IMG/VR virus record: IMGVR_UViG_2663762648_000013
DNA: 61,430 nucleotides
Reading direction: 5' to 3' (one strand)
From: a virus
Taxonomy: Duplodnaviria > Heunggongvirae > Uroviricota > Caudoviricetes
Shown: positions 415 to 59,878 of the stretch, piece by piece
Layout: every line of letters starts with the position of its first letter
Position numbering within the stretch: position 1 is the stretch's first letter
Program-made: the position numbers and the translations under genes
The notes under the pieces: generated by a model
Databases searched by the model: none
What the model saw: the letters and a program-made list of their open reading frames with translations, nothing else
What the model was told of the DNA's origin: nothing

Positions 415-428
415 TCAGGAGAAATACG

Positions 429-1634
429 ATGGCGGTTGATATTAAAGATGTCGAACAGGTCGCGCAGGAGCTGCAGCAGAAGTTTGACGACTTCAAAGCA
501 AAGAACGACAAGCGCGTGGATGCGATTGAGCAGGAAAAAGGCAAACTTGCCGGGCAGGTGGAAACCCTGAACGGGAAACTCAGCGAGCTGGAAAACCTCA
601 AAAGCGATCTTGAAAAAGAGCTGCTTGAGCTGAAACGTCCGGCAGGTGGTGCGCAAAATAAACTGGCCACCGAGCATAAAGAAGCGTTTGTGGGCTTCCT
701 GCGTAAAGGCCGTGAAGACGGTCTGCGCGATCTGGAGCGCAAGGCATTACAGGTGGGCACCGATGAAGACGGCGGCTATGCCGTGCCGGAAGCACTGGAT
801 CGCAACATTCTCACCCTGCTGAAAGATGAAGTGGTGATGCGCCAGGAAGCCACGGTGATCAGCGTTGGTGGTTCCGACTACAAAAAACTGGTGAATCTGG
901 GCGGCACGGCTTCCGGATGGGTTGGCGAGACTGACGCGCGCTCCAAGACTGCCACCTCAAAACTGGGCCTGATTGAACCTTTCATGGGGGAAATCTACGG
1001 TAACCCGCAGGCCACCCAGAAAATGCTGGATGATGCCTTTTTCAACGTGGAAGCATGGATCAACAGCGAGCTGGCAACCGAATTTGCCGAACAGGAAGAA
1101 ATTGCCTTTACCACCGGCGATGGTACCAAGAAGCCGAAAGGGTTCCTGGCGTATGAGTCCACGGATGAAACAGACAAGGTCCGGGCGTTCGGCAAACTTC
1201 AGCATATTGTATCCGGCGAAGCGACGGCGGTGACCGCAGATGCCATTATCAAACTGATTTACACGCTGCGTAAGGCACACCGCACTGGCGCGAAGTTCAT
1301 GATGAACAACAACAGTCTGTTTGCCATCCGTCTGCTGAAAGACAGTGAGGGTAACTATCTGTGGCGTCCTGGGCTGGAGCTGGGGCAGCCGTCCTCTCTG
1401 GCGGGTTACGCTATCGCTGAAAACGAACAGATGCCGGATATTGCCGCTGATGCGAAAGCCATTGCATTTGGTAACTTCAAACGGGGTTACACCATCGTTG
1501 ACCGTATCGGTACCCGCATTCTGCGTGACCCGTACACCAATAAACCGTTTGTCGGTTTTTATACCACCAAGCGCACCGGCGGCATGCTGGTCGATTCGCA
1601 GGCCATCAAACTGCTGAAGATTGCAGCGGCGTAA
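429..1634 (+). CDS. major capsid protein (HK97 fold)
   Basis: 401-aa ORF with GGAG-type SD upstream; coiled N-terminal delta-like region then capsid-like body; position after protease. Confidence 0.85.
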   Translation: MAVDIKDVEQVAQELQQKFDDFKAKNDKRVDAIEQEKGKLAGQVETLNGKLSELENLKSDLEKELLELKRPAGGAQNKLATEHKEAFVGFLRKGREDGLRDLERKALQVGTDEDGGYAVPEALDRNILTLLKDEVVMRQEATVISVGGSDYKKLVNLGGTASGWVGETDARSKTATSKLGLIEPFMGEIYGNPQATQKMLDDAFFNVEAWINSELATEFAEQEEIAFTTGDGTKKPKGFLAYESTDETDKVRAFGKLQHIVSGEATAVTADAIIKLIYTLRKAHRTGAKFMMNNNSLFAIRLLKDSEGNYLWRPGLELGQPSSLAGYAIAENEQMPDIAADAKAIAFGNFKRGYTIVDRIGTRILRDPYTNKPFVGFYTTKRTGGMLVDSQAIKLLKIAAA

Positions 1635-1642
1635 TCATTCAG

Positions 1643-1664
1643 GGGGCGCAGAAGTGCGCCCCCT
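1643..1664 (+). terminator. GC-rich stem-loop after capsid gene (gggggcgca-gaag-tgcgccccc)
   Basis: Perfect 9-bp inverted repeat 9 nt after capsid stop; no strong U-run, so may be a partial terminator or RNA stability element. Confidence 0.4.
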
Positions 1665-1685
1665 GTTCTGACAGGTGAAAGAATC

Positions 1686-1874
1686 ATGATCCTGAAACAA
1701 GATCTGAAATGGTCACCGGACGGTATGCGTGTTGAGATTATTCGGGCCGGTGAGTATGAAGATAAAGAATTACCCGAACGGGTACGCGAAATTGCCACTG
1801 CAGCTGGGATTGTCTCTGATAAGAGAACACCTGTTGCGCGGGGGGCTGATAAGTCTAAAAAACAGCATTCATAG
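1686..1874 (+). CDS. hypothetical small head-region protein (62 aa)
   Basis: ORF in track between capsid and connector genes; no recognisable motif. Confidence 0.35.
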   Translation: MILKQDLKWSPDGMRVEIIRAGEYEDKELPERVREIATAAGIVSDKRTPVARGADKSKKQHS

Positions 1875-1885
1875 AGGTTGCCCAA

Positions 1886-2191
1886 ATGATGCCCACTCTG
1901 GAAGAGCTTCGTGTTCAGTGCCGGATTGATGATGACAATGAACAGGAGAATTCTCTTCTTATGATGTATCTGGCTGCTGCCAGGGAAGAGGCTGAAAAGT
2001 TTTTAAACCGGACGCTTTACGATGAAACTGTTTCTGAGCAGGATACGACCGGGCTTGTAATAACACCTCTGATAAAACTGCGTCTTATGCAACTGGTTGG
2101 CTACTGGTACGAGAACAGGGAAATGCAGGATGCAGTGCCTGATTTTTTCTATACCGGACTGCGGATGTATCGATTTCATCCCGGAACATAG
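1886..2191 (+). CDS. head-tail connector protein (gp6-like)
   Basis: 101-aa ORF; sequence and position typical of HK97-type head-tail connector. Confidence 0.6.
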   Translation: MMPTLEELRVQCRIDDDNEQENSLLMMYLAAAREEAEKFLNRTLYDETVSEQDTTGLVITPLIKLRLMQLVGYWYENREMQDAVPDFFYTGLRMYRFHPGT

Positions 2192-2199
2192 GAGGACTC

Positions 2200-2538
2200 A
2201 TGCAGGCAGGAAGATTACGTGATCGTGTGGTTATTCTGAATGCCACCACCGTTCGGTCTCCGTCAGGGCACCCTGTGGAAACAATGACGGAGGGGGCAAC
2301 CATATGGGCAGAAGTTAAGGGGATCAGTGGCAGGGAGAGAATATCCGGAGGCGCAGAAACTGCTCAGGCTACAGTGAGGGTCTGGATGAGATTCCGGCGA
2401 GATGTAACAGCAACTTCATGTCTGAAAGTGCTGACTGGTGCATTCAAAGGCGCGATTCTGAGTATAGACGGTCCGCCGATACCGGATGCTCGTGCCACAC
2501 GGCTTGAGATACTCTGTTCTCAGAAGGGGAATGTGTGA
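2200..2538 (+). CDS. head closure / head-tail adaptor protein
   Basis: 112-aa ORF, SD aggagg upstream; position after connector. Confidence 0.6.
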   Translation: MQAGRLRDRVVILNATTVRSPSGHPVETMTEGATIWAEVKGISGRERISGGAETAQATVRVWMRFRRDVTATSCLKVLTGAFKGAILSIDGPPIPDARATRLEILCSQKGNV

Positions 2539-2984
2539 TGGATTTCAGTCTTGATTTTTCAGGTCTGGCGGATATTGCACGGGATCTGGAGACGCTCAGC
2601 AGGGCAGAAAACAATAAGGTACTGCGCGATGCCACCCGTGCCGGTGCTGAAGTTATGCGGGATGCAGTTGTTGAACGTGCGCCGGAGCGAACCGGGAAAC
2701 TGAAGAAAAATGTGGTTGTTCTCACTCAGCGTTCAAAGCGTCGGGGGGAAATTATCTCGGGTGTCCACATTCGTGGACGGAACCTGCGAACCGGAAACAG
2801 TGATAACAGCATGAAAGCCAGTGATCCCCGAAATGCGTTTTACTGGCGCTTTGTGGAGCTGGGAACGATAAACATGCCCGCGCATCCGTTCATTCGCCCG
2901 GCTTTCGATACGACAGAGGAACTGGCAGCACAGATTGCCATACAGCGAATGAATCAGGCTATTGATGAGGTCTTAAGTAAATGA
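2535..2984 (+). CDS. HK97 gp10-family tail component
   Basis: 149-aa ORF; APERTGKL-type motif typical of HK97 gp10 family. Confidence 0.6.
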   Translation: MMDFSLDFSGLADIARDLETLSRAENNKVLRDATRAGAEVMRDAVVERAPERTGKLKKNVVVLTQRSKRRGEIISGVHIRGRNLRTGNSDNSMKASDPRNAFYWRFVELGTINMPAHPFIRPAFDTTEELAAQIAIQRMNQAIDEVLSK

Positions 2985-3325
2985 GAGAGACCACACTGTA
3001 TTCCCTGCTGTCTCAACTGGCCGGAGGACAGGTTTATCCTTATGTGGTCCCGCTGACGGAGGGAAAGCCTGCGGTATCTCCGCCATGGCTGGTATTTTCT
3101 GTGGTGTCTGACACTGCGTCTGATGTGCTTGATGGTCAGGCTGAATCCAGAATTACCGTGCAGATCGATGTCTGGGCAACAGTACCTGATGACGCAGATG
3201 ATATCCGTGAGCAGGCGCTTGATGCGGTAAGGCAACTTGCACCCTCCGTTATTTCTAAAACTCAGGGTTATGATCCTGATTCCCGTCTGAGCAGAGCCAC
3301 GCTTGAATTTCAGGTAATAGCCTGA
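2981..3325 (+). CDS. tail completion / tail terminator protein (DUF3168-like)
   Basis: 114-aa ORF overlapping neighbours by 4 nt; position before major tail gene. Confidence 0.5.
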   Translation: MRETTLYSLLSQLAGGQVYPYVVPLTEGKPAVSPPWLVFSVVSDTASDVLDGQAESRITVQIDVWATVPDDADDIREQALDAVRQLAPSVISKTQGYDPDSRLSRATLEFQVIA

Positions 3326-3384
3326 GGTCGTTAATGATTTTACCCACCCGCCGCTGGCGGGGTTTTTATTTTCAGGAGACGAGT

Positions 3385-4089
3385 ATGTCCTCTAATTTTG
3401 AGCGTTCGCAACTGACGAAAATTATGATTTCGTCTGCACCGGTAACAGCAGAAACCCTGGATTCTGCCAGCTATCTTGGCCTGAGCTGTACAATCAAAGA
3501 GGTGCAGTTTACCGCAGGACAAAAGCAGGATATTGATGTCACCACGCTGTGTTCTGTTGAGCAGGAAAATATTAACGGCCTTGGTGCCGCGTCAGAGATT
3601 TCCATGTCAGGCAACTTTTACCTCAATGCTGCCCAGAACGCGTTGCGCAGTGCCTATGACAATGACACCACGTATGGCTTTAAAGTTATTTTTCCGTCAG
3701 GCAACGGATTTACCTTTATGGCAGAGGTGCGTCAGCATACCTGGTCTGCAGGAACTAATGGTGTTGTGGCTGGAACGTTTTTCCTGCGCCTGAAAGGTAA
3801 ACCTGTGCTGACGACAGAGCCGCTGAAAGTGAAGGTCGATTTAAACAGCACGCTGCAGGTTTCTGCCGGAGCGAAACTCGAAATGGTGGTTGAGGCTGCC
3901 GGTGGTGTGCCGCCTTATTCTTATGTCTGGAAGAAAGGTAGTTCTCCTGTTTCCGGACAGACGGCGGCAACATTCAGTAAGGCATCAGCAGCATCAGGTG
4001 ATGCCGGTGCGTATACCTGCGAGATTTCTGATTCAGCAAGCCCTGTTAACAAGGTGACCTCCACTTCCTGCACTGTTACCGTCAGTTAA
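3385..4089 (+). CDS. major tail protein with C-terminal Ig-like domain
   Basis: ORF 3334-4089, start moved to ATG at 3385 preceded by caggagacgagt SD; C-terminus (VPPYSYVWKKG...AGAYTCEI) is Ig-like. Confidence 0.7.
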   Translation: MSSNFERSQLTKIMISSAPVTAETLDSASYLGLSCTIKEVQFTAGQKQDIDVTTLCSVEQENINGLGAASEISMSGNFYLNAAQNALRSAYDNDTTYGFKVIFPSGNGFTFMAEVRQHTWSAGTNGVVAGTFFLRLKGKPVLTTEPLKVKVDLNSTLQVSAGAKLEMVVEAAGGVPPYSYVWKKGSSPVSGQTAATFSKASAASGDAGAYTCEISDSASPVNKVTSTSCTVTVS

Positions 4090-4816: not shown

Positions 4817-7800
4817 ATGAGTGTGGCGACATTACGTGAACTGATTATTAAAATCTCGGCAAATTCCCGGTCATTCCAGTCAGAGATCTCCCGGGCTTCG
4901 CGTATGGGGCAGGATTACTACCGTACCATGCAGAACGGAGGCCGGCAGTCCGCTGCTGCATCCCGTGAAATGCGGCGTGCACTGGCAGAAGTGACGGATC
5001 AGATAAATACAGCTAAATCTTCGGCACTGAATATGGCGGGGGCATTTGCCGGAGCTTTTGCTACCGGTCATCTTATTTCTCTCGCCGATGAGTGGAATTC
5101 AGTAAATGCCCGTCTGAAGCAGGCTTCACAGTCCAGTGATGATTTTCAGGTATCACAACGTGAATTAATGGCAATCAGCCAGAGAACGGGAACGGCGTTT
5201 TCTGATAACGCCAGCCTTTTTGCCCGCTCTGCAGCTTCCATGCGGGAGTATGGCTACAGTTCTGAGGAGGTACTGAAAGTCACCGAGGCGATCTCCACGG
5301 GCCTGAAATTATCCGGTGCCAGTACAGCAGAAGCCAGTTCGGTGATCACGCAGTTCAGTCAGGCACTGGCGCAGGGAGTGCTGCGCGGTGAAGAATTTAA
5401 CTCTGTGAATGAGAACGGCGATCGTGTTATTCGTGCGCTGGCTGCGGGAATGGGTGTTGCCCGTAAGGATCTGAAGGCCATGGCGGATAACGGAAAACTG
5501 ACCGCCGATAAGGTTGTTCCTGCACTGATTAGTCAGCTTGGGGCGTTGCGTGATGAATATGCAGCAATGCCTGATACTGTTTCATCCTCTGCAACCAAAG
5601 TTGAAAACGCCTTTATGGCCTGGGTTGGTGGTGCGAACGAGGCAAGCGGAGTGACAAAGACACTCACCGGGGTGTTGAATGGTGTTGCAGACAATATTGA
5701 TACCGTGGCTGCTGCAGCTGGCGCACTGGTTGCCGTCGGGGTAGCCCGATATTTTGGCAATATGGCGTCGTCTGCTGGATCTGCAACTGCCGGATTAATT
5801 ACTGCAGCCAGAAACGAAGTGGCTCTTGCTGAAGCGCAACTTCGGGGGACACAGATAGCAACCGCCAGGGCGCGTGCGGCGGTTTATCGTGCGCAACAGG
5901 CGGTTGTTGCTGCTCGCGGTACCGAAAGGCAGGCCGCAGCAGAAGCGAAGCTGACAGCTGCCCAGGCGTCACTTACCCGTAATATTGCGGCCAGAACAGC
6001 GGCACAGACAACGCTGAATACTGTCACGTCAGTGGGGAGTCGTCTGTTAAGTGGTGCGCTGGGGTTGGTTGGTGGTGTGCCGGGACTCGTCATGCTGGGG
6101 GCGACGGCCTGGTACACGATGTATCAGAATCAGGAGCAGGCCAGAGAATCTGCACGCCAGTATGCCGCAACAATCGACGAAATTCGCCAGAAAACGTCGG
6201 CAATGTCGCTTCCTGAAGCGTCAGATAATGAGGAAATGACGCGGCAGGCACTTGATGAGCAAAACAGGTTAATTGACGAGCAGAAAAGTAAGATTAAATC
6301 CTTACAGGAAAAAATTGCTGGCTATCAGTATGTGCTGGCAAACCCGGGCTGGACAACCGATAACGGTTTTATGATTAACCACATGACGTCGGTAAAAACT
6401 GTCACAGAAGGGCTTGCAGAAGCAACAAATCAACTGGCAGTTGAACAGTCCCGTCTCACACAAATGCAGGGCAAAGCGCAATCCATTCAGGATGTGCTTG
6501 CCGGGCTGGAGGAGCGACGGGTGGCGTTGATCCGTCAACAGGCCGCGGAACAAAACAAAGCGTATCAGTCCCTGTTGATCATGAATGGGCAGCATACCGA
6601 GTTTAATCGCCTTCTCGGGCTCGGTAATGAATTACTTCAGCAGCGACAGGGGCTGGTGAATGTACCGTTACGGCTACCACAGGCAACCCTGGATGATAAA
6701 CAGCAGACTGCACTGAATAACAGCGAGCGCGAACTGGCTCTGTCCCGCCTGAAGGGGGAAGCCCGTGAGCGTGCCCGCTTGGGTTATGCTGCGGATGATC
6801 TCGGCTTTGTGGGAGAGGCGTATCAGACAGCCAGGCAGAATTATATCAATAACTCACTGGATGCCTGGCGAAATAACCAGGCAAATAAACCCAAAGCGCA
6901 TAAAAAGACCGAAGCGGAAAAAACAGAAGATATTTATAAACGGCTGATTAAACAGCAAAAAGAACAAATAGCACTGGCAGGGCAGAATACTGAACTGGCT
7001 AAGATGAAATATCAGGTCAGTCAGGGCGAATTATCAACCCTGTCAGAAGCGCAGAAAAAAACGCTTTTGCAGAATGCAGCACTCATCGACCAGAAAAAGA
7101 TTCGTGAGCAGCTTGCTGCGTATGAGAGCAGTCTGGCGGACAGTAATGCCAGTGCCCGGGCATCTGACGAAGCGCAGTTGTTGGGATATGGTGAAGGCTC
7201 ACGGATGCGTGAACGACTCCAGGAAATGTGGAGTATCCGGCAGGCGTTTGAGCAGAAAAATAACGAGCTGCTGAGACAGTATCAGGCCGGAGAAATTGAA
7301 GAAGCCCTGTGGAAACAGGAGAAAGAACTGAATAAAAAATATCTGGAAGAGCGTCTCAGCGATCAGCAGAATTATTATGCAAAGGCCGATGCTTTACGTA
7401 ATAACTGGAATGCCGGACTCCAGGAGGGACTGACCAACTGGGCAGACAGTGCCACCGATTATGCTTCACAGGCGGCAGATGCTGTCGTTTCCACGATGGA
7501 CGGGCTGGTATCAAATATTTCCGATGCACTGGCCGGAAATGTTGTGGACTGGAGAAACTGGGGGAGTTCAATTCTCCAGGAAGTTTCAAAAATTCTGATG
7601 AACGCTGCCATCGTTAACGGGCTGAAGTCACTTTCCAAAAGCATGTCCGGTGCCGGAGGATGGCTTGGTACAGTCGGCGACTGGCTTTCCGGTGCAGTGG
7701 CAAACGCAAAAGGTGGTGTTTACACATCGGCAAATCTGAGTGCTTACAGTAACACTATTGTGGATACACCGACGTATTTTGCTTTTGCGAAAGGTGCCGG

Positions 7801-8062
7801 GTTGATGGGCGAGGCCGGGCCTGAAGCAATCATGCCACTGACACGGGCAGCGGACGGCTCTCTTGGGGTCAGGGCCATTGGAAATGTGAATGGTGGCGGT
7901 GGATTTGTTTATTCTCCCGTGTATCACATCAGCATTCAGAATCAAGGGAGCAATGGCGAGATAGATGCGCGCTCAGCCAGGGGACTGGTGGATCTGATCG
8001 ACAGCAGGGTTGTGTCAATTATGCAGTCATCGCGTCGGGATGGAGGATTGTACAGTGCCTGA
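4817..8062 (+). CDS. tail tape measure protein
   Basis: 1081-aa ORF, coiled-coil and Ala/Gln-rich, position after G/GT. Confidence 0.9.
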   Translation: MSVATLRELIIKISANSRSFQSEISRASRMGQDYYRTMQNGGRQSAAASREMRRALAEVTDQINTAKSSALNMAGAFAGAFATGHLISLADEWNSVNARLKQASQSSDDFQVSQRELMAISQRTGTAFSDNASLFARSAASMREYGYSSEEVLKVTEAISTGLKLSGASTAEASSVITQFSQALAQGVLRGEEFNSVNENGDRVIRALAAGMGVARKDLKAMADNGKLTADKVVPALISQLGALRDEYAAMPDTVSSSATKVENAFMAWVGGANEASGVTKTLTGVLNGVADNIDTVAAAAGALVAVGVARYFGNMASSAGSATAGLITAARNEVALAEAQLRGTQIATARARAAVYRAQQAVVAARGTERQAAAEAKLTAAQASLTRNIAARTAAQTTLNTVTSVGSRLLSGALGLVGGVPGLVMLGATAWYTMYQNQEQARESARQYAATIDEIRQKTSAMSLPEASDNEEMTRQALDEQNRLIDEQKSKIKSLQEKIAGYQYVLANPGWTTDNGFMINHMTSVKTVTEGLAEATNQLAVEQSRLTQMQGKAQSIQDVLAGLEERRVALIRQQAAEQNKAYQSLLIMNGQHTEFNRLLGLGNELLQQRQGLVNVPLRLPQATLDDKQQTALNNSERELALSRLKGEARERARLGYAADDLGFVGEAYQTARQNYINNSLDAWRNNQANKPKAHKKTEAEKTEDIYKRLIKQQKEQIALAGQNTELAKMKYQVSQGELSTLSEAQKKTLLQNAALIDQKKIREQLAAYESSLADSNASARASDEAQLLGYGEGSRMRERLQEMWSIRQAFEQKNNELLRQYQAGEIEEALWKQEKELNKKYLEERLSDQQNYYAKADALRNNWNAGLQEGLTNWADSATDYASQAADAVVSTMDGLVSNISDALAGNVVDWRNWGSSILQEVSKILMNAAIVNGLKSLSKSMSGAGGWLGTVGDWLSGAVANAKGGVYTSANLSAYSNTIVDTPTYFAFAKGAGLMGEAGPEAIMPLTRAADGSLGVRAIGNVNGGGGFVYSPVYHISIQNQGSNGEIDARSARGLVDLIDSRVVSIMQSSRRDGGLYSA

Positions 8063-14267: not shown

Positions 14268-14605
14268 CAGATCACCACTTCGTCAAACTGACACGAAAAA
14301 TCGGTATAGGTGATATGTTCTGTCGCTGACCACGTTCGACACACCACTCTGATTTTTCTGTTAATACCCGGCGGGCGCCAAAAAAAAGATTTATAGCCTT
14401 CATGCCGGGCTAAAAATTTTTCAAATGAATCACGTTCATTCGCCTCAACTTTGAAATCACAGGTGAAAACGCGCAGAGAATGATTAAGTCCATTTGGACT
14501 TCGTTGCTCATAACCATCACCAAATCTTACAGTTTTTATCGATGGTTTATTTTCTGTTTTCATTCCATCCTCTGGTAACCAGTGAAATTCTTCCGTATTA
14601 GCCAC
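14267..14605 (-). CDS. minor tail protein M (lambda gpM-like)
   Basis: 112-aa ORF with FGDGYEQR motif; follows tape measure. Confidence 0.8.
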
Positions 14606-17600
14606 TTAACATTCCCCCATCACGTCGCATATTTAACAGATTGCCCTGCACCCGCTGATCAACCATCCCCATAAGTGCTTTTATTGCCTGAGGGCCAATC
14701 TCTCCATTCTGGCCGTCATTTTGAATAGTGATTTGGTATACAGGGGCATAGGTAATATCTCCGCCTCCATTACCACTTTTACTATTAATAGCTCTGACAC
14801 CAAGAGAACCATCGGAAGTTCGTGTTAATGGCATAATGGCTTCCGGTCCAGCCTCACCAAAAACACCAGCCCCTTTTGCAAAAGCAAAAAATTGCGGGGA
14901 ATCATAAATACCGTTCGAATACGTGCTCAATGACGGAGACTCATAAACACCGCCCTTTGCATTCGGAATAAATTTACTAATAGCACTCCCGATAGTTCCT
15001 AAAATCCCCCCAGAAGAACTGTTACTAATGCTGTCGAAAATCCCAGTAATTGAAGCCTTTAATGCTATTCGACTAAGATCCGAAATCACGGAAGTAGCGA
15101 AAGAACGAAAATTTGCCTTGCCTGTCGTGACAAAATCACCCAGCGCATCGGTCATCCCATCAAACATCTGAGTCGTGGTTGATTTTATCTGCTCACTGAT
15201 ATCCTTAGTGTCATCCAGCCAGTTATTGAATCCCTGGGAGGCACCACTAACCCAGTCTCCTGCCTGAATATCGAGCTGCTCGTTTTTCTGTCTGACAATT
15301 TCTTTTTCCCGTTCCAGAGCATCATTCAGAGCCTGCATTTTCTCTTGAAAAACATGATCTGACATTCCACGGGATTTATCTGCATAGTCACGTTCAAGTT
15401 GCAGACGCTGATTGTTATATCCATGTTCAATCCGCAGTAATTCCTGCTGGCGTTGCTGATTTTTATCGCCAACCCCATAACCAGCAATCTGAATATCATA
15501 CCCCTGCTGACGATTATCAATCGAAGCCTGCAATGAATCACGCCATGCTGTTATTTCGGCGGATTCCTTGATTAGCCTGTTATTTTTTTCAATCGCAACA
15601 TTTTTCTCCATCAACGTGGTTATTTCTTCCCGGTGTAAGAGAAGCGATTTCTGATCCTGGGTTAATTTCGATGATGGTCGTGACTCTAGGTCGGCAATCC
15701 GCTGACGCCACTTAACCAGTTCCTGTTCAGAGGAACTTAATTTAACGGTCAACTCAGCTTGTGAACTTAGTAACGCATTCTGTTGATTCAGATGATCAAT
15801 CATTCGTTGGGCTGCATCATCAGAATAACCTTTCGCCTTTGGTTGCTTTGGATCTTTATAACGCTCATTTATTTGAGCGATAAGATTATTATATTCTTCC
15901 TTTGAATACTGATTCTTTAGCTTTTCCAGTTTTGCAAGTTCACTAGCTCTCTGCTGCTCCCGGGTCTGATATTGTTTTGAAAAGGCATCTGCTCTCTGTC
16001 TGAGTTCAATTCCTTCCTGTTGTCGCTTGTTGTAATCGTTTATTGATGAATTTAGTACGTCCTGAGCAATTTTTTCTGCTTGAAGTACGCCCAATTGCTG
16101 CTTTAATCGTGCCAGCCTTTTATTTTGAGCTCCGCCATCTCCAATGCCACCTAACCCGAAAACTCCGGGTCGGGTATTTTTTTCTATTTCATCAATTTGA
16201 CGGAGAACATCTGAGATTTTTTGATCAAGGGAGGCCTCACGGCCAATATCCAGCATGGAATCCCATGCCCATTTTGCGGAGTCTGCGACAGCTTTCCATG
16301 CAGTCTCAAGATAACCAAGATTTTCTTTAATCTGGTTGGTGCGCTGGATCATTGAGGATGAGTATTCTTCTGTCGCAATGCGGGCGGCCTCCTGCTGGTT
16401 CCCTTCATCCTGTAGCGCCTTAATCTGGTTATAAGTCGCAAGTGTCAGAAAATGGTACTGATCATTAAGTTTTGATATGGCACTGACAGGATCCTTTGCA
16501 ATTTCATTGAAGTCATTAACCAGTTGTTCGGTTGATATTCCTGTTACTTCGCTCGTTTTTACTATCGCTGTCGTCACTTGCTCCAGCGAACTGCTCGCTA
16601 CCTTTCCCGAACGCACAAGCTGATTTAATACTGCCGCCGCAGCACCAGTTGTCGAATCAGCCGCATTCCCGGCACGTTGAGCTATATCGCCCAATTGCCC
16701 GCTGGTTGTCCCCAACTGATTTCCGGTAAGAATAAGAGATTTATTAAATTCGTCCTGCTCCTGAGAGCCTTTATAGTAAGCCAGTCCTAAGACCCCAACG
16801 GCTGCTGCGGCCAGGGTAAAAGGATTAATTAATCCCAGCACATAAGAACCTACACCTTTGATCGCCGGGCCAATCCCACCGAACATATCTTTTAGCTGGC
16901 CGCCCTGCTGCATTAACACCATAAATGGCGACTGACCAGTGGACAACCCAACAACAATATCCGTCATTTGTACAGGCAACATGCGCATAGCAAAAGCCGT
17001 TTGTTTTGCCGACATTCCGGTTTTGCTTAATTGTGATTGAGTAACCTCAAGCTCACTCCGCATAGCACGAAGTTTTCCAGAAAGCTCCTCATACATTTCA
17101 GGAGAAAGCATCCCCTTAGCTTTTGCTTCATTGAGCTGTTTCTGTTGTTCTACCAGACGATTAAAAGCAGTTCCGACAGGATCAAGTTGAGCAATCAGAC
17201 GTTGCAAAGCAACAACCTGTTCATCATGCGCTTTTGCTGCTTCTCGCTCTGCCTGAGCCTCTCCGGTAAGCTCTCGCCGTGTTTCCTGTATTTTTCGGCT
17301 ATAATTCTCAAACTGAGAACCATTTATTTTCCCGGATGCAAACGCAGCATTAAGTTCATCATGCTGTTGTTCAAGATTTCTTAGCGCCGCAGCCAGAGGG
17401 TCGATCTTGTCCAGCATTCTTTGAAAGGCCTGAGCCTGCGCTTCCTGCTGGGCGGCAGCAAGTTTTCCGGCCTTCTCGGCTTCTCTCTGCGCTTGCGCAA
17501 CCCCGCTCAATTCCTCTGTGGTTTCATTAAGTTTACGGACAAGAAATTCATATTCTTCTTTATCAATAAGCCCTTTATCGAAAAATTTCTTTAATTCAGA

Positions 17601-17831
17601 ATAGCGTCGACCGACAGTATCAATTGCGGCACCAACTGGATCAATAGCTGCTTTTAATTTTGCGAGCGCGTTCTTCTCATCTTCTGTTGCCTTAGTCACT
17701 TTCCCTGCGCTATTTGCAGCAGTTTCCCCAGCCTGCGTCATTTTGACTAATGAGGAGGTCAGATTGTCAGCATTATTTTTCGCTCCAGTGCTATCAATAA
17801 TTATTGCGAGACGCGAGGTTTGCTCTGCCAT
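14598..17831 (-). CDS. tail tape measure protein
   Basis: 1077-aa coiled-coil-rich ORF; SD GGAG upstream. Confidence 0.9.
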
Positions 17832-34599: not shown

Positions 34600-35185
34600 T
34601 TTTCCTCACATATGTCATATAGTAAAGGATTATATATACCGTTGTTTTGGACGCTCAAACAGCGAATCAGATCAAATAAAACGCACATTTGTTAACATTT
34701 ACACAAAGTCTGCGTGGGATATTCTGAAAGAATATCCATAATGTGGAGAGAATCTATTGAAGTGCATGGTGCTGGGTGCCTCCCGGTGAACAAAATGTTC
34801 GTGATACCTGTCGGCGACAGAAAAGGTTAATGGTATCACCCCACCGCACAGGGGGATTCACCATGCAGGAGTTTTCTTAGCAAACTCACTGCGCGCCCGG
34901 CAACTCCCAACCACATAAAATGCGGAGTTTGTGGCATTTATGCATATAACTCGCAGGAATTATCTTAAAAAACTGATGTCGATCCGGATTAAAAAGAAGC
35001 AGGTCATCATCAGATGACTGGAAAAAAGGAAAACAAAAAATACTCATCATACAGTTTTGATTGCAGGGATGAGCCTGCTATGCACAATATGCAGAATATA
35101 AGCAAGATAAAAATATGCAGGCATATTATTTCGGATCTTGTTATTAACACAACCTTTTTAATAATCATTTGGCATACAATAAACC

Positions 35186-37072: not shown

Positions 37073-37352
37073 TTCTCAATCTCTCGATGGCGCAGCGCAG
37101 CAGATGCCAGTTGTTCAGGCTGACGAATAAAGTATAAATAAACTGGCTATGGTGTAAAGCCCCACATAGCATGAACAAACACTAGATATCAAATAGCTGG
37201 TACAAGGATAGAAATACGACACTTATTATTAAAAACGATTAGATAAATTACATTTTAATGTTATGCAAAAGTTCTTTTTTATCATAACATTTCAATAAAA
37301 GCATTACAGATGCAATCATCCCGTCATCATCAATTATTTAAGGTGGTTAAAC

Positions 37353-37439
37353 ATGGAAAATAACAAGTTCGCACATCTCGCTCCTTTTTTATCCGTAATC
37401 CTTTTCGCTTGTTGTTTTATATGGGCATTATTTTTATAA
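37353..37439 (+). CDS. 28-codon hydrophobic peptide ORF (MENNKFAHLAPFLSVILFACCFIWALFL)
   Basis: Strong SD AAGGTGG 6 nt before ATG; single predicted TM helix; in AT-rich intergenic DNA; not in ORF track (below 60 aa). Confidence 0.3.
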   Translation: MENNKFAHLAPFLSVILFACCFIWALFL

Positions 37440-37885
37440 AGTAGCCACATGATAAGTTGCTGGAATCATATTTCCCACTCAAGTCATTAACATTTGATAA
37501 GATATATCTAAAAGGACGCCTTTACATTATTTATGCGTATATAATTTATTTATATACACAGTAAAGGTATCCTGGGAAAATATTTATCGTTAAAAAATAC
37601 ATCATAAATAATTAAGCTGAAATTTCAGAACACAACTAATACACACAATAAGGTTCAGTAACAGTAATCTATGTGGACTACATCGAGATTTTTTGATTAA
37701 ACTTTAATAACTTATTCCTAACACACAGAATGCATAAACTAAAAGTAAAACAAATAGTTATACGAAAAACAACCATATTTATTCTATCTTCTCCTCTAAT
37801 CAACATATCAATTATGTGTTTCATAACAGCTTGACATAACCCTCCAAAAGATGCATTTTTAATGCATGTTTTGGAGGAGGTGGTT

Positions 37886-38224
37886 ATGACACACAAGAGA
37901 ATTCCTAAAGATTGGGTAATCAAACGCTCAACTCCGTTCTTCACAAAAGAGAACGTACCTTCAGCGTTATTAACACATCATAATACAGCAGCAGGTGTTT
38001 TTGGGCAGTTGTGCGTAATGGAAGGCACTGTAACATATTATGGTTTTACTGATGAGAATGCTACTGAACCGGAGATAAAAGTAGTCATTAATGCTGGCGC
38101 TTTTGCAACAAGCCCACCACAATACTGGCACCGTGTTGAACTAAGCGATGATGCTCAGTTTAATATTAACTTTTGGGTCGCTCCAGACTTTTCGGGCGAA
38201 AAAGTCTATAGCACCAAAAAATAG
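37886..38224 (+). CDS. YeaR-like DUF1971 (TehB N-terminal-like) protein
   Basis: ORF 37862-38224; start set to ATG 37886 after GGAGGAGGTGG; resembles E. coli YeaR as I recall it. Confidence 0.6.
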   Translation: MTHKRIPKDWVIKRSTPFFTKENVPSALLTHHNTAAGVFGQLCVMEGTVTYYGFTDENATEPEIKVVINAGAFATSPPQYWHRVELSDDAQFNINFWVAPDFSGEKVYSTKK

Positions 38225-38844: not shown

Positions 38845-39846
38845 TTAGTAATCTGCGTGTTTCGCACTTTTCAGAAATGCTTTCATATTTTCATTAGGTC
38901 GCTCAATTTCGAAGTTACTTCCATATAACTCTTGTAATTTTGGCCATAACTTACTTAATAACCCTCTCCTGCGATAAAATGGATGTATCCAAACGGTAGA
39001 TAGGTACGGAGAATTTGCATTTGAATTGTTTATTGTGACCAGCCCAACTAAACATTGTCGATAACCACTATTATCCATTGATTGTATTTCTTCGACGAAT
39101 GGATACGCGATTACATCAGTCCAACCATGATCGGTTGTATCCCATTGCATTCCGTCATGACATTCCTTCGACTGATAGCGGCGTAAAGCTACACACGCGA
39201 GCTTTTGCCAATCTGGAGAATTAATTGTGATCTCTTCATCGTATGACGCGCCTATTGGAGCGGGTATTGGTCTGATTAATCCAGCATGGCATTCATCATA
39301 GAACTTCATGTTTCCCTCAGAAACGTTGTGTACGTTGGGTTGCTCCATGTGTGCGCCATTCAAAAATAGCTCTGATAGTAGTGTATCTACACTGTAATCT
39401 TTATTGATTATTGTCGGCTTAGAGTTTTTCTTATTAAGGCCGCGAGTAACGATTTTTTGATCAATGTTAACAACATGGAATAATCCGTCGGGGAGGCTAG
39501 CGAACCACGATGGGGCATCGGACCAGAATAGCATGCCTTTTGTACTTCTTAAGAGTTTAATTAAGTTAATACAAGCTTCTTCACTAGTCTTGCCGTTGAT
39601 GCGAAGTATGTTAGGACTAAAGTAATATTCATCCATATCAGGGAATGCAGCTTCGCAAAACTCCTGTACATAATTTAGCACCTGGATTCTACAGAGATCA
39701 TCATAGCTGGTAATAACTAAGGGGGTATCTTCATTACTATTATGATTATCAATAATGTAATCTATAGCGAGACTTACTGCTTTGCGTATCACTTCAGTTG
39801 AATCTAACGACTCTAAAAATTTTGTCTTTCGTGTGCGAATATCCAT
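38845..39846 (-). CDS. hypothetical protein B (333 aa) with GNAT-like C-terminal motif; second gene of candidate accessory cassette
   Basis: Clear ORF in low-GC DNA; C-terminus CLVGLVTI...VWIHPFYRRRGLLSKLW resembles GNAT strand/motif-A pattern. Confidence 0.6.
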   Translation of the reverse strand: MDIRTRKTKFLESLDSTEVIRKAVSLAIDYIIDNHNSNEDTPLVITSYDDLCRIQVLNYVQEFCEAAFPDMDEYYFSPNILRINGKTSEEACINLIKLLRSTKGMLFWSDAPSWFASLPDGLFHVVNIDQKIVTRGLNKKNSKPTIINKDYSVDTLLSELFLNGAHMEQPNVHNVSEGNMKFYDECHAGLIRPIPAPIGASYDEEITINSPDWQKLACVALRRYQSKECHDGMQWDTTDHGWTDVIAYPFVEEIQSMDNSGYRQCLVGLVTINNSNANSPYLSTVWIHPFYRRRGLLSKLWPKLQELYGSNFEIERPNENMKAFLKSAKHADY

Positions 39847-39861
39847 GTATGACCTGCGCTA

Positions 39862-40884
39862 TTAAAATTCATGAATGAACGGTTTGTCATCTGGTTGCAA
39901 AATGGTGGTTTTATTCGTTGCTACATTTAAACTGTTGTAGAGCATAATTGCCAGGTTCGATGCATTTTCAATCAGCGTTTCAAGATCCTGGTCTGTAATC
40001 ACTACGAGGTTCCCTTCTTTATCCTTTCCACCACGATGCACTAAGTGATTTCGATTGAGGGTTGCCAATTCAATAGCTTCTATCGGACAGTCTTTTTGTA
40101 CTTTTATATCGAATGTAGCTTCATAGCGGTCGATTACCTTTTTAGTGCTATGCCAGCTTGCACTGATCAAGTGTTCCTTGATTGACCTGATTAGCTCTCC
40201 CCTAATTTTCTCGATGGGTTCACCCTTGAAAGGCAACGCAGCAATATCTTTGCTTACTTTAAATTCAGTCTTACCTTTTTCTATACAATTGGCTATGTAG
40301 ACATCATCTTTCTCTATAGAATTAATGAATAGCTCAACATAAAGCGTTTCCAAAGCTGTAATAACATTCGTGTAGAGCAAACTAAGCAAGTGGTTTTTTT
40401 GCTGTTGTTCAGTTTTATCTTTTGCAAGTTTTTTTATTTTATCGATATTATCAATGAATTTTAAATACGGATTACCGGAAGACGTTACAGCGTCGTAGAT
40501 ATCATCATCGTACCAATCATCTATATTATTTGAGTTTCCAGACCAGTCAAAACATTGTGTTTGTAATTCATCTACTAATTCCTCAATATACTCAGATTTA
40601 ACATATTGACCGAAGATGGATTGTAGTTCTTCGCTCGCATCATACGGCCCGCCATATATGTAAGCATAGCCACCTTCTCTACTTTCATACGGACAAGCAT
40701 TTGCCGGATCTTCAAAGTTTTCAAAGAACCAGTTTTTCATTACTTCGAGTTGATCTTTTTTGCTTATGTATTTTAAAGATTTTAGTGGAACTTTCTTTCC
40801 ATTAACCTCGAAAACAATTTTCACGATGTAACGCTCCCTTGTATCAATTGCGCAACTATTATACCACAGCGAAATACAGGGCAT
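39862..40884 (-). CDS. hypothetical protein A (340 aa) with HEPN-type RNxxxH motif; first gene of candidate accessory cassette
   Basis: ORF 39862-40953; start set to ATG 40884 preceded by AAGGAGG; motif LNRNHLVHRGG at 40027-40053; low GC. Confidence 0.65.
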   Translation of the reverse strand: MPCISLWYNSCAIDTRERYIVKIVFEVNGKKVPLKSLKYISKKDQLEVMKNWFFENFEDPANACPYESREGGYAYIYGGPYDASEELQSIFGQYVKSEYIEELVDELQTQCFDWSGNSNNIDDWYDDDIYDAVTSSGNPYLKFIDNIDKIKKLAKDKTEQQQKNHLLSLLYTNVITALETLYVELFINSIEKDDVYIANCIEKGKTEFKVSKDIAALPFKGEPIEKIRGELIRSIKEHLISASWHSTKKVIDRYEATFDIKVQKDCPIEAIELATLNRNHLVHRGGKDKEGNLVVITDQDLETLIENASNLAIMLYNSLNVATNKTTILQPDDKPFIHEF

Positions 40885-41022
40885 AACCTGCCTCCTTAAA
40901 CTAACATACCATGAGCCAGCAATGTCCGCTATTGGCACAAAGCGGACAACCACGCTAGCTCTCCCCTGTGCCAGAAAAATGTCAATTTACATATGAACTA
41001 ATGCTCTTTGATCTAGTAACGT

Positions 41023-41439
41023 CTATAAATACCGAAGATTTCCTTGATAAAATGCCAGTACACGTTTCATAACTTCACTCTTCCGGCACTCGCGACAGAT
41101 TATGTTCTGACGCCTGTCATAGCGGCGTATTTCTCCGTCTGGTAATGACCAGATAAGGTCAGGATCAACCACAACCGTTTTTTTCACCTTTGCCCTGGAT
41201 AGTTTTTTGCGGGCGTTTTTCCAATCCTTACGAGCCTGTTCAGACGGGAATAACCCGTAGCCAGAGTTGTATACATCCCCACTGGCAACCAGCTCTCTGG
41301 CGAGAACGCTTATTAAATATCTTGTCGCCCCGGTTTTAGCTTCCAGTTGTCGTAACGTCTCGCGCCCACTCTGGCGTACGAGTTCAACAACCTGCCCCTT
41401 AATTTTTTCCCGCTCTTCCTGTGTAAATACTTTTGCCAT
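41023..41439 (-). CDS. winged-helix DNA-binding protein (138 aa), prophage early region
   Basis: N-terminal HTH-like segment; C-terminal CRECRK; three diverged paralogues in window. Confidence 0.55.
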   Translation of the reverse strand: MAKVFTQEEREKIKGQVVELVRQSGRETLRQLEAKTGATRYLISVLARELVASGDVYNSGYGLFPSEQARKDWKNARKKLSRAKVKKTVVVDPDLIWSLPDGEIRRYDRRQNIICRECRKSEVMKRVLAFYQGNLRYL

Positions 41440-41454
41440 AAGCGCCCCCGGCAA

Positions 41455-42180
41455 TCACTTTTCCGACACAATACGACCGGAGGAATCGACAATCTGTCGA
41501 ACAATATCCCGGTGCTTGTTCAGCTCCCGCAACGCGGCGCAGACACGCTCCCACTTCTGGACATGACTTTTCGCCCGACGCAGTTCGCGGTTTGCCATAT
41601 GCAGCGATGGTAAAACCAGGTCATCCGCTTGCGTTTCGGTGAACGATGGCAACGACTGCACAATGTCCGCCACAGTTTCTGTTTTAATTTCTTCCTGTGT
41701 TGCAGCTTCCTGTACCGGTAACGCAACACCTGCTGGCTGAGGAAAGACTTTACCATCCGTTTCCGCTATGGATGCGGCTTTCGGCTCTGCCGGTAAATCA
41801 GCGCCCGGTATGCAGTACCGAAATTTACCGCCCTGATTCACGCGAATCAGACGCCCTTTGCTGATTGCCATGGCCAGCGATGAATTCGCCCGGCGGGAGG
41901 TAATCCCGAACATCAGTGCCAGCTCATCCGCCGTTTGTGGGCCATGTTGTTCAATCGCCTCAGTCAGCATTTGCGCTGTCACTTTCGGTACCGGTGACAC
42001 TGGTTCACTTTCACCAGCCTGAATCAGCCACCACATCGAACCCTTGTTATCCGCTTCACCACGGCGCTTCAGTTTCCACAGTTCGTTGACCGCATCTTCA
42101 CGGCTGATTCCAAGGCGGGACGCCACCACATGTGAAGAGGCTCTTTTCAGTGCTTTCAGTGCGTCAAATACAGTTTCCAT
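41455..42180 (-). CDS. prophage early-region protein (241 aa, winged-helix repeats)
   Basis: ORF 41455-42198 trimmed to ATG 42180 preceded by GGAGGA; paralogue at 43577-44338. Confidence 0.5.
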
Positions 42181-42198
42181 TAAAACATCCTCCAACAA

Positions 42199-42391
42199 AA
42201 ATTACTTCACAACTCCCGGAAAGCTGACATTTGAACGCCAGCTATCCCAGTTAAACGTCACCCACCGACAACCGTTCATGGTCATGCGGTCCATAATCCT
42301 CTCACCAAGAAGCGTGCTCATTGCGGCATGATTCAGGTTTGTTAACATCCCGACACTGCACAGTGATGCTGTCCGGCGATCAATTATCTGG
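42199..42391 (-). CDS. DnaC-like helicase loader, C-terminal fragment (diverged allele; truncated at N 42392)
   Basis: Minus-strand translation parallels the C-terminus of the ydaV-like genes. Confidence 0.4.
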
Positions 42392-42392
42392 N

Positions 42393-43006
42393 TTACCTTT
42401 TTCTATACAATTGGCTATGTAGACATCATCTTTCTCTATAGAATTAATGAATAGCTCAACATAAAGCGTTTCCAAAGCTGTAATAACATTCGTGTAGAGC
42501 AAACTAAGCAAGTGGTTTTTTTGCTGTTGTTCAGTTTTATCTTTTGCAAGTTTTTTTATTTTATCGATATTATCAATGAATTTTAAATACGGATTACCGG
42601 AAGACGTTACAGCGTCGTAGATATCATCATCGTACCAATCATCTATATTATTTGAGTTTCCAGACCAGTCAAAACATTGTGTTTGTAATTCATCTACTAA
42701 TTCCTCAATATACTCAGATTTAACATATTGACCGAAGATGGATTGTAGTTCTTCGCTCGCATCATACGGCCCGCCATATATGTAAGCATAGCCACCTTCT
42801 CTACTTTCATACGGACAAGCATTTGCCGGATCTTCAAAGTTTTCAAAGAACCAGTTTTTCATTACTTCGAGTTGATCTTTTTTGCTTATGTATTTTAAAG
42901 ATTTTAGTGGAACTTTCTTTCCATTAACCTCGAAAACAATTTTCACGATGTAACGCTCCCTTGTATCAATTGCGCAACTATTATACCACAGCGAAATACA
43001 GGGCAT
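42393..43006 (-). CDS. second copy of cassette protein A, N-terminal part only (truncated at N 42392)
   Basis: Identical in translation to 40271-40884 including the upstream AAGGAGG. Confidence 0.5.
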
Positions 43007-43144
43007 AACCTGCCTCCTTAAACTAACATACCATGAGCCAGCAATGTCCGCTATTGGCACAAAGCGGACAACCACGCTAGCTCTCCCCTGTGCCAGAAAA
43101 ATGTCAATTTACATATGAACTAATGCTCTTTGATCTAGTAACGT

Positions 43145-43561
43145 CTATAAATACCGAAGATTTCCTTGATAAAATGCCAGTACACGTTTCATAACTTCAC
43201 TCTTCCGGCACTCGCGACAGATTATGTTCTGACGCCTGTCATAGCGGCGTATTTCTCCGTCTGGTAATGACCAGATAAGGTCAGGATCAACCACAACCGT
43301 TTTTTTCACCTTTGCCCTGGATAGTTTTTTGCGGGCGTTTTTCCAATCCTTACGAGCCTGTTCAGACGGGAATAACCCATAGCCAGAGTTGTATACATCG
43401 CCACTGGCAACCAACTCTCTGGCAAGAATGCTCATCAGATATCTTGTCGCACCTGTCTTGGCCTCCAGTTGCCTTAACGTCTCGCGCCCACTCTGGCGTA
43501 CCAACTCAACAACCTGCTCCTTAATTTTTTCACGCTCTTCCTGTGTAAAAACTTTTGCCAT
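43145..43561 (-). CDS. winged-helix DNA-binding protein (paralogue of 41023-41439)
   Basis: 143-aa ORF, near-identical protein. Confidence 0.55.
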   Translation of the reverse strand: MAKVFTQEEREKIKEQVVELVRQSGRETLRQLEAKTGATRYLMSILARELVASGDVYNSGYGLFPSEQARKDWKNARKKLSRAKVKKTVVVDPDLIWSLPDGEIRRYDRRQNIICRECRKSEVMKRVLAFYQGNLRYL

Positions 43562-43576
43562 AAGCGCCTCCGGCAA

Positions 43577-44338
43577 TCACTTTTCCGACACAATACGACT
43601 GGAGGAATCGACAATCTGTCGGACAATATCCCGGTGCTTGTTCAGCTCCCGCAGCGCGGCGCAGACTCGCTCCCACTTCTGGACATGATTTTTCGCCCGA
43701 CGCAGTTCGCGGTTTGCCATATGCAGCGATGGTAAAACTAGGTCATCCGCTTGCGTTTCGGTGAACGATGGCAACGACTGCACAATGTCCGCCACAGTTT
43801 CTGTTTTAATATCTTCCTGTGTTGCCGCTTCCTGTACTGGTAACGCAACACCGGCTGGCTGAGGAAAGGCTTTACCATCAGTTTCCGCTACCGATGCAGC
43901 TTTCGGCTCTGCTGGTAAATTATCGCCCGGCATGCAGTAACGAAATTTACTGTTCTGGTTTACGCGAATCAGGCGTCCTTTGCTGATTGCCATTGCCAGC
44001 GTTGAAGCAACTTTGCGGGATGTTGTACCGAACAGCGTAGCCAGTTCATCCGCCGTTTGTGGTCCGCGTTGTTCAATCGTCGCGGTTAAATCGCACTCTG
44101 AGATTTTCACTACAGTTGCCGTGGTGGTTTCTTCCGGCAGTTCTGCCTGCATTGGCTGTTCCTGCTGAACGTTGTTATCAGCCACACGCCAGGTGTACGC
44201 GCTTTTATCAACGAAACCAGCTTTTTTCAGTTCCCATAGTTCGTTCAGCACTTCTTCACGACTGATATCAAGTCGCGCAGCAAGTTCTATGGATGTGGCT
44301 TTTCCCATTGCTTTCAGTGCGTCAAAAACAGTCTCCAT
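43577..44338 (-). CDS. prophage early-region protein (253 aa, paralogue of 41455-42180)
   Basis: ORF 43577-44389 trimmed to ATG 44338 preceded by GGGAGGA. Confidence 0.5.
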
Positions 44339-44360
44339 AAAAATTTCCTCCCGGTAAAAA

Positions 44361-45107
44361 TTACTTCTCAATTCCTGGCTGGACGACATTCGGACGCCAG
44401 CTCTCCCAGTTAAAATTCACCCATCGCCCGCCGTTCATGGTCATGCGATCCATAATCCGCTCGCCGAGCAATGTTTTCATGGCCTCATAGTTCAGGTTTG
44501 TCAGCATCCCCACGCTGCGCATCGACGCTGTCCGGCGATCAACAATCTGGTGCAGCACCACCTGCTCGTTTTTCGTCTCGCGCTGAATGCCAATTTCATC
44601 AAGAACCAGCAGATCCACTTCGCATAGTTCCCGCAAAAATTTTTCGCCTGACTGCCCATCGTCATAGCTGGCGTGCAGGGCACTCATAACATCAGCCACG
44701 GTAACCACAATCACTGTCTGACCGTCTTTCAGCAGGCGATTCCCGATAGCTGCCGCTAAGTGGTTCTTCCCGGTACCAGGTTTTCCGCTGAACGCAAAAT
44801 TTGTACACCCGGTCATCAGTTCATCAGCGATGGATTTCGCCTGACTCAACGCGTATCGCTGCGCTTCGTTCTGCACCTGGTAATTCGAAAACGAGCATTT
44901 GCGGTGCAATGGCTGGATGCCAGAGCGATTCAGAATTTTTTCCACCCGCAACTGGCGATTCAGGCGGTTGATCTCCTCGCTACGTTTCTGGCCTTCAGCA
45001 AGTTGCCACTCGCGCCACTCCGCTACCGTTCTGAATGGGGCGGTTACATGTGGCGGGGTCAGTCGGCGGATGCGTTCCAGAACGCCGCCTGTCGCAATAT
45101 TTTTCAT
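44361..45107 (-). CDS. DnaC-like replication protein / helicase loader (YdaV-like)
   Basis: Walker [14 protein letters not shown] and Walker B LLVLDEIG. Confidence 0.85.
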
Positions 45108-59689: not shown

Positions 59690-59878
59690 ATGTATAAAAT
59701 TACCGCCACTATTGAAAAGGAAGGTGGCACTCCTACTAACTGGACAAGATATTCAAAATCTAAACTAACGAAATCAGAATGCGAAAAAATGCTCTCAGGT
59801 AAAAAAGAAGCAGGCGTTTCCAGAGAGCAGAAAGTAAAACTGATAAATTTTAATTGCGAGAAACTTCAGTCCTCGTGA
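59690..59878 (+). CDS. ydaC: YdaC-like protein (62 aa)
   Basis: ATG 59690 preceded by GGAGGTG; ORF 59618-59878 in track. Confidence 0.6.
   Translation: MYKITATIEKEGGTPTNWTRYSKSKLTKSECEKMLSGKKEAGVSREQKVKLINFNCEKLQSS

Follow-up and report, generated by a model that had tools for sequence, protein, structure and literature searches.

Three lines of earlier work bear on the locus described here. DS-33 is a two-gene transcription unit, with products WP_014639476.1 and WP_000354965.1 and the working name 'GNAT', which was taken from an E. coli strain of a mostly-ECOR collection, classed as a 'Predicted novel defense gene' and listed as defensive (TRUE) in Table S6 of the DefensePredictor study (DeWeirdt et al., Science 2026; PMC13092281). 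Fusions of the HEPN/RES-NTD1 domain (hereafter NTD1) to HEPN and to RES domains have been described (Anantharaman 2013; PMC3710099), and the B subunit of PD-T4-2 contains a RiboL-PSP-type HEPN domain (Vassallo et al. 2022; PMC9519451). Our subject is a cassette of two genes, A and B, in the IMG/VR virus record IMGVR_UViG_2663762648_000013, a 61,430-nt stretch of caudoviricete DNA that we refer to as the window. A sequence-only reading of this DNA, made before any database search, had proposed that the cassette was an uncharacterised defence or toxin system. We found that it is an anti-phage system, already published as DS-33 and hence not new; it is neither an obligate two-gene system nor a simple toxin-antitoxin pair. 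A defence system was recognised from raw sequence alone, yet its publication dates from 2026. What we add is that A and B are independently mobile and joined in one lineage only, that the B deleted in the published work was a minority allele with a substitution at an invariant position, and that A almost certainly has a different start from the one first assigned and likely a promoter of its own.

Identity of the cassette with DS-33

The two genes are co-oriented on the minus strand with 15 nt between them, and the sequence-only reading had both this arrangement and the extent of B right.

39862..40824, minus strand: gene A (DS-33A), 320 aa, GTG start; HEPN/RES-NTD1 plus HEPN ribonuclease-type effector; AlphaFold2 mean predicted local distance difference test (pLDDT) score 88.8
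38845..39846, minus strand: gene B (DS-33B homologue), 333 aa, ATG start; N-terminal alpha/beta domain plus C-terminal GNAT-fold domain; AlphaFold2 mean pLDDT 90.3

The identification was made from the supplementary tables of PMC13092281. Protein A of the window is identical to DS-33A at 320/320 residues (Table S8), protein B is identical to DS-33B (WP_000354965.1) at 331/333, and gene order and spacing are the same. The two differences in B are at residue 30, which is Tyr in the window and Cys in the tested protein, and at residue 289, which is Pro in the window and Leu in the tested protein, such that the published protection was measured with the window's A allele and a different B allele. 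In two replicates, wild-type DS-33 gave log10 protection of 3.8/2.6 against T7, 3.3/2.4 against T3, 4.0/2.0 against Bas67, 5.0/5.9 against Bas26 and 0.8/0.1 against T5 (PMC13092281 Table S7). Against the same five phages the values were at most 0.54 for the A-deleted construct and at most 0.78 for the R258A mutant, and the B-deleted construct gave 4.8/4.3 (T7), 3.3/3.3 (T3), 4.0/3.3 (Bas67), 5.0/4.9 (Bas26) and 1.7/0.5 (T5) (PMC13092281 Table S7). From these counts it follows that A and its HEPN arginine, R258, are required and that B is not. The published work includes the mutation of the arginine in RNHLVH that the sequence-only reading had proposed: R258A abolishes protection. DS-33 is absent by name from the main text of PMC13092281, Table S9 of that paper gives predicted template modelling (pTM) values only and no interface (ipTM) value for DS-33, and we found no later paper on the system.

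The start of A requires correction. The sequence-only reading had placed the gene at 39862-40884 (340 aa) behind a strong AAGGAGG; the frame, the ATG at 40884 and the AAGGAGG at 40897-40891 are all present, but this start lies 20 codons too far upstream. Comparison with related sequences indicates that the true start is almost certainly GTG 40824, because every homologue in our alignment (n=64, many genera) begins with MK(I/V)VF, because a stop codon closes the frame upstream of the GTG in three related loci (L030, L059 and L026), and because the 320-aa form is used both by the Prokaryotic Genome Annotation Pipeline (PGAP) and in the published DS-33 construct. The PGAP call for this product in a matching locus is WP_014639476.1.

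40825..40884, minus strand: the 20-codon N-terminal extension assigned earlier to A (60 nt), more likely 5′ untranslated region plus promoter than coding sequence
40858..40866, minus strand: candidate extended -10 element of the A-B cassette, TGgTATAAT
40834..40839, minus strand: Shine-Dalgarno sequence AGGGAG, 9 nt before GTG 40824

TATAAT, TACAAT or TAAAAT stands at the position of the candidate -10 element in 11 related loci with different contexts, and AGGAGG or AGGGAG is found in most related loci. A generic promoter scan left the element unflagged, there being no -35 match, and the promoter and terminator scan as a whole returned no more matches than shuffled controls. Conservation across the related loci makes it likely that the cassette carries its own extended -10 promoter and Shine-Dalgarno sequence within the 60-nt region.

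Domains, mobility and possible action of A and B

The domains and motifs discussed below lie as follows.

40525..40824, minus strand: A residues ~1-100, HEPN/RES-NTD1 domain
39901..40407, minus strand: A residues ~140-308, HEPN helical domain
40036..40053, minus strand: predicted catalytic motif of A, R258-N-H-L-V-H263 (Rx4H), within LNRNHLVHRGG
39322..39846, minus strand: B residues ~1-175, alpha/beta domain without a family match
38848..39309, minus strand: B residues ~180-333, GNAT-fold domain
38956..38991, minus strand: B W286-L297 (WIHPFYRRRGLL), GNAT motif-A-like strand and loop
39757..39759, minus strand: B codon 30, Tyr in the window

Protein A has the four-helix up-and-down fold of HEPN domains and, in R258-NHLV-H263, the Rx4-6H motif of the superfamily, which the sequence-only reading had picked out within LNRNHLVHRGG. 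In an alignment of 64 homologues reaching down to 26% identity, R258, H263, R264, E159, W224 and H225 are invariant in 64/64. Conservation is stronger still in the N-terminal block WFxxNFEDP...PYxSxEGGYxYIxGGPYDA, and NTD1 (invariant P45, G58, G59, P60 and F71) is the most conserved part of the protein. The Pfam family PF18870 (HEPN/RES-NTD1) matches the window protein at 22.2 bits (E 2e-4; cut-off 27.4) and 58/64 of its relatives at E<=0.01; PF18735 (RiboL-PSP-HEPN) matches 30/64 aligned relatives at that threshold (best 7e-11) and does not match window A at E<=1. An NCBIfam search with A gave no match, the PADLOC v2 hidden Markov models gave no meaningful match for A or B, and no relatives emerged from profile searches against PDB sequences. 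NTD1 was also found C-terminal to a PIN_8 nuclease domain in a 407-aa metagenome protein (P0117); given that it is joined to HEPN, RES and PIN domains, it behaves as a portable module of different RNA-targeting effectors.

The alignment of the B family comprises 45 homologues and has 33 invariant columns. For the N-terminal alpha/beta domain, structural matches are weak and are to AAA/NB-ARC-type domains alone. The C-terminal part, correctly described beforehand as GNAT-like, keeps the GNAT alpha/beta fold, but its canonical motif A (Q/RxxGxG/A) is incomplete: the corresponding residues are R292-R-R-G295-L-L297, with L, M or I at the final position in 45/45. In this region W286, H288, P289 and R292 do not vary within the family, and 35/45 members have G295. 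The Pfam GNAT family matches 19/45 B homologues, with window B falling 0.8 bits short of the cut-off, and NCBIfam yields one 13-bit GNAT match and nothing else. A structure search of BFVD gave weak generic phage GNAT matches alone, and the C-terminal part also matches a PHROG family. An exhaustive profile search recovered only ~10 full-length representatives, together with numerous stand-alone proteins (150-180 aa) aligning with B residues 180-330 (E 1e-37 to 1e-21) and found in varied contexts, including after a DUF3987 gene on a phage contig, after a gene for an 802-aa protein and after rpoD. At two such loci (L097, 1691-3483; L098, 536-3420), ~160-aa relatives of the GNAT domain overlap the end of a large upstream gene by 4-7 nt, which hints at translational coupling; the upstream product is a 437-aa DUF3987 protein in L097 (a phage contig, between recombination and terminase genes) and the 802-aa protein in L098. 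A virion or replication function for A and B, which the sequence-only reading had named as one finding that would tell against defence, is ruled out, the folds being HEPN and GNAT.

The alleles of B deserve attention. The tested DS-33B carries P289L in the motif-A region, at a residue that is invariant in 45/45 relatives, and this allele is recorded on 31 contigs, the consensus on at least 1000. The published finding that B can be dispensed with may therefore not extend to the common allele. Window B has the consensus P289 and a private change, C30Y, at a near-invariant position (Cys in 43/45 family members and all 40 related loci); the exact protein (WP_052974802.1) is recorded on only 2 contigs, both from Shigella sonnei, which makes this species the probable source of the window. 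B has four conserved cysteines in all: C30, C218, C229 and C265.

We surveyed 80 metagenome loci with A relatives and 14 distinct genome loci with B homologues. B lies immediately downstream in 25/25 of the loci where A is at least 83% identical, and is absent from 55/55 where A is at most 72% identical; conversely, 11/14 B loci have no A relative, among them one with a Rahnella B that is 86% identical. Judged from these loci, A and B each move as a single gene, independently of the other, and are joined in one enterobacterial clade only. Solo A adjoins PDC-M68A/B, AbiH, PtuA-like, Aga helical-restriction endonuclease (REase), NsnA/PD-T4-2_A-like, PDC-S60 and SIR2 genes, and solo B adjoins SIR2-HerA, AbiD/PD-T4-5, REase/AAA and ThsA-like genes. 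Since these neighbours are known defence genes, as the proposal of a defence role had led one to expect, A and B can each be regarded as residing in defence islands in their own right. In the clade that has both genes, they stand behind DUF977 only in the E. coli-type prophage, and elsewhere occupy at least 15 unrelated contexts outside prophages, with constant spacing (15-18 nt) and with A/B identities that fall together from 98/95 to 83/77%. The pair has therefore been moving as a unit for some time.

We consider it likely that DS-33 is prophage cargo in which A is the effector, a putative infection-activated HEPN ribonuclease, and B is an accessory rather than a required partner or antitoxin. 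According to this model, A would be inactive in the lysogen and would be switched on by infection with T7-like and some other phages. Its HEPN active site, probably formed across an A dimer as in other HEPN nucleases, would then cut RNA, most likely tRNA anticodon loops or mRNA as is the case for DARNA, HepS, ApeA and PrrC, thereby halting translation and aborting infection. As NTD1 occurs on HEPN, RES and PIN effectors alike, it is plausibly the regulatory or sensing module of A. B would be a separately mobile accessory, acting either as a tuner of A or as a module with a function of its own, which joined A in one enterobacterial lineage.

Several points weigh against this interpretation. Window A falls below the Pfam curated cut-off for both of its domains, and RNA cleavage, dimerisation and abortive infection are predictions for A, cleavage of tRNA or mRNA being expected by analogy with other HEPN defence proteins. 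The DS-33 mutant data are raw counts in a supplementary table, which the main text of PMC13092281 does not discuss, and the dispensability of B was obtained with the minority P289L allele and with five phages only. Finally, across unrelated contexts A and B stay linked at a fixed distance and diverge together, a hint that the two are functionally connected.

It is conceivable, albeit on balance improbable, that A and B are unrelated single-gene modules which share a cargo slot, B being a separate defence gene that acts on phages outside the tested panel or a phage-derived host-modifying or counter-defence protein. The SIR2-HerA, AbiD/PD-T4-5 and ThsA-like neighbours of solo B would fit such an arrangement, as would the PHROG match, the existence of a ~160-aa protein family built on the GNAT part of B with one member after the DUF3987 gene of a phage contig, and the DefensePredictor log-odds, which are high for A (9.45) and low for B (1.08) (PMC13092281). 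However, the linkage and correlated divergence of the pair persist across contexts, and the A-deleted construct, in which B is still present, protects against 0/5 phages.

The main rival to B as a mere accessory is that A and B form a true two-component system in which B, as an acetyltransferase, holds back or tunes A through covalent modification or binding, in the way that the nucleotidyltransferase MntA restrains the HEPN toxin HepT. We regard this as unlikely. The argument for it is made from the linkage just described (15-18-nt spacing and co-divergence in at least 15 loci outside prophages), from a gain in T7 protection of 1.0 and 1.7 logs in the two replicates upon deletion of B, with slight gains for T5, T3 and Bas67, as would fit a negative modulator, and from P289L, which may have partly crippled the tested B. 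Against this, the majority of A relatives, at 72% identity or less, are solitary, as are most B relatives, the strain lacking B is viable and defends, showing that A is not lethal without B, and gains of ~1 log in two replicates could be explained by expression or construct effects. A related proposal, which we likewise hold to be doubtful, is that B is an active acyltransferase working with A, either damping the nuclease or widening the phage range, and that its published dispensability is due to P289L and the choice of five phages. If so, DS-33 would be the first HEPN defence nuclease under GNAT control, an acetylation counterpart of HepT/MntA AMPylation, and a system whose two modules also function on their own.

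It is very improbable that the pair is a classical toxin-antitoxin addiction module serving mainly to stabilise the prophage, one protein (the HEPN protein A, or else B) being the toxin and the other the antitoxin. Although toxins with a HEPN fold (HepT) and with a GNAT fold (TacT and AtaT) are known and the genes are adjacent and co-oriented, both are mostly solitary elsewhere, no small ribbon-helix-helix (RHH), MNT or helix-turn-helix partner gene was found, and each gene can be deleted from the plasmid construct in cells that grow well enough for plaque assays, viable single deletions that essentially exclude such a pair. Returning to A as effector with B as an accessory, we next consider where the cassette lies.

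The prophage setting and the second copy of A

The window is a Rac-type lambdoid prophage, with RalA small RNA (sRNA), open reading frames (ORFs) of the size of recE and recT and one of the size of an integrase gene. Annotations at the matching locus of E. coli FORC_081 include trkG, recET, kilR, sieB and ydaT/U.

59696-59874, minus strand: RalA sRNA (Rfam, 225 bits), antitoxin of Rac's RalR type I toxin
34710-34896, minus strand: STnc100 sRNA (Rfam, 79 bits)

The cassette lies between the replication and nin/Q modules, with dnaC, DUF1627 and DUF977 (Ren-like, phrog_142) upstream and, downstream, a DUF1971 gene on the opposite strand followed by DUF1367/DUF1364/DUF1133 late-regulation genes. 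As first noted from the bare sequence, it is richer in AT than its flanks: its GC content is 0.377 compared with a window mean of 0.479 and 0.47-0.54 in the flanking genes, and only 0.7% of equal-sized windows are this low. The whole cassette is present in 205/5426 complete E. coli genomes and a 2.4-kb query is matched only in part in 1634, which identifies the site as a polymorphic cargo space. Separate acquisition into a common cargo site, another suggestion of the sequence-only reading, is thus supported. No copy of the cassette was found among INPHARED phage records, where only the DUF977 end of the query was matched. Just downstream, positions 37073-37861 are very AT-rich (GC 0.305) and contain no convincing ORF, and the DUF1971 gene (37862-38224, plus strand) resembles the N-terminal part of TehB; the stretch 37073-38224 may be further cargo or a remnant.

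The N-terminal part of A recurs in the window.

42393..42946, minus strand: second copy of A, limited to codons 1-184 (100% identity) and truncated at an 'n'
42392: single 'n', probable contig or scaffold join, at which a dnaC 3′ fragment meets the interior of A

This recurrence had been noticed at the outset and is real, with 42393-43075 identical to 40271-40953 at 100%, but it probably reflects a scaffold join at the 'n' and not a biological duplication. The identity of the two copies extends ~1 kb into DUF977 and then drops to 86-98% through DUF1627; the second copy stands behind a diverged DUF977 gene. Not one of the 5426 complete E. coli genomes spans the junction at 42392. From this pattern, segments of two related prophages were probably joined at 42392 in the scaffold; a tandem or partial duplication of A is rejected, since the copy ends at the scaffold 'n' and the junction is absent from complete genomes. 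The window contains eight isolated 'n' bases in all (9459, 10985, 12442, 12519, 13791, 42392, 45815 and 51010). The dnaC-3′/DUF1627/DUF977 module is present in two diverged copies (41023-42391 and 43145-44550; 86-98% identity, then an indel), both of which lead into identical A sequence, and this suggests a source genome with two related lambdoid prophages sharing the same cargo. Some complete E. coli genomes match the 2.4-kb cassette query at two places. Likewise, two ORFs of ~1080 aa (4817-8062, plus strand; 14598-17831, minus strand) lie in opposite orientation with only ~22% identity and several 'n' bases between them, a layout that fits one scaffold containing segments of two different prophages. 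The window may therefore be a composite drawn from more than one prophage.

Comparison with known systems

Apart from DS-33 itself, PD-T4-2 is among the named systems close to A. Its PD-T4-2_B was the best remote HHblits match of A for the DefensePredictor authors (probability 96.1, coverage 0.55; PMC13092281), and in locus L078 a distant relative of A, 39% identical, has a PD-T4-2_A/NsnA-like gene nearby. The co-oriented gene row at this locus (169-4068) continues after the A relative with a 193-aa protein, an NsnA/PD-T4-2_A-like protein (DUF262-type) and a PDC-S60-like protein, and resembles the PD-T4-2 arrangement of ParB-like and RiboL-PSP-HEPN proteins. Nevertheless, the partner there is DUF262/ParB-like whereas here it has a GNAT fold, A has NTD1, neither A nor B matches the PADLOC models PD-T4-2_A and PD-T4-2_B even at E<=1, and no such gene flanks the cassette. 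Membership of PD-T4-2 is rejected, the partner gene being of the wrong kind. The same holds for the type VII HepT/MntA systems, in which the partner is an MNT nucleotidyltransferase: the partner of A has a GNAT fold and is dispensable, A is not lethal without it, and we found no nucleotidyltransferase match for the cassette proteins and no adjacent MNT gene.

The type II GNAT toxins TacT, AtaT, ItaT and KacT share with B a GNAT-fold domain of ~150 aa. B differs from them in having an extra 175-aa N-terminal domain and a hydrophobic residue in place of G/A at the end of motif A. No small ORF that might encode an RHH antitoxin is present at the cassette, where B directly follows A and the DUF1971 gene, next in line, runs in the opposite direction.

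The architecture of A, NTD1 followed by HEPN, is the same as that for which a role in conflict or defence systems was predicted, as a prediction only, from comparative analysis (Anantharaman 2013; PMC3710099; KPK_1764). Those fusions were placed in the MAE_28990/MAE_18760 HEPN family, whereas Pfam places the HEPN domain of the A family nearest to RiboL-PSP-HEPN. Beyond this, DARNA (PD-T7-3), HepS and ApeA have no homology to A outside the HEPN core and differ from it in domain order. However, each combines HEPN and a sensor domain in one protein, much as is proposed for A, and by analogy they provide a working model for how A may act. DARNA, which cleaves tRNA anticodon loops, defends against T3 and T7, as does DS-33.

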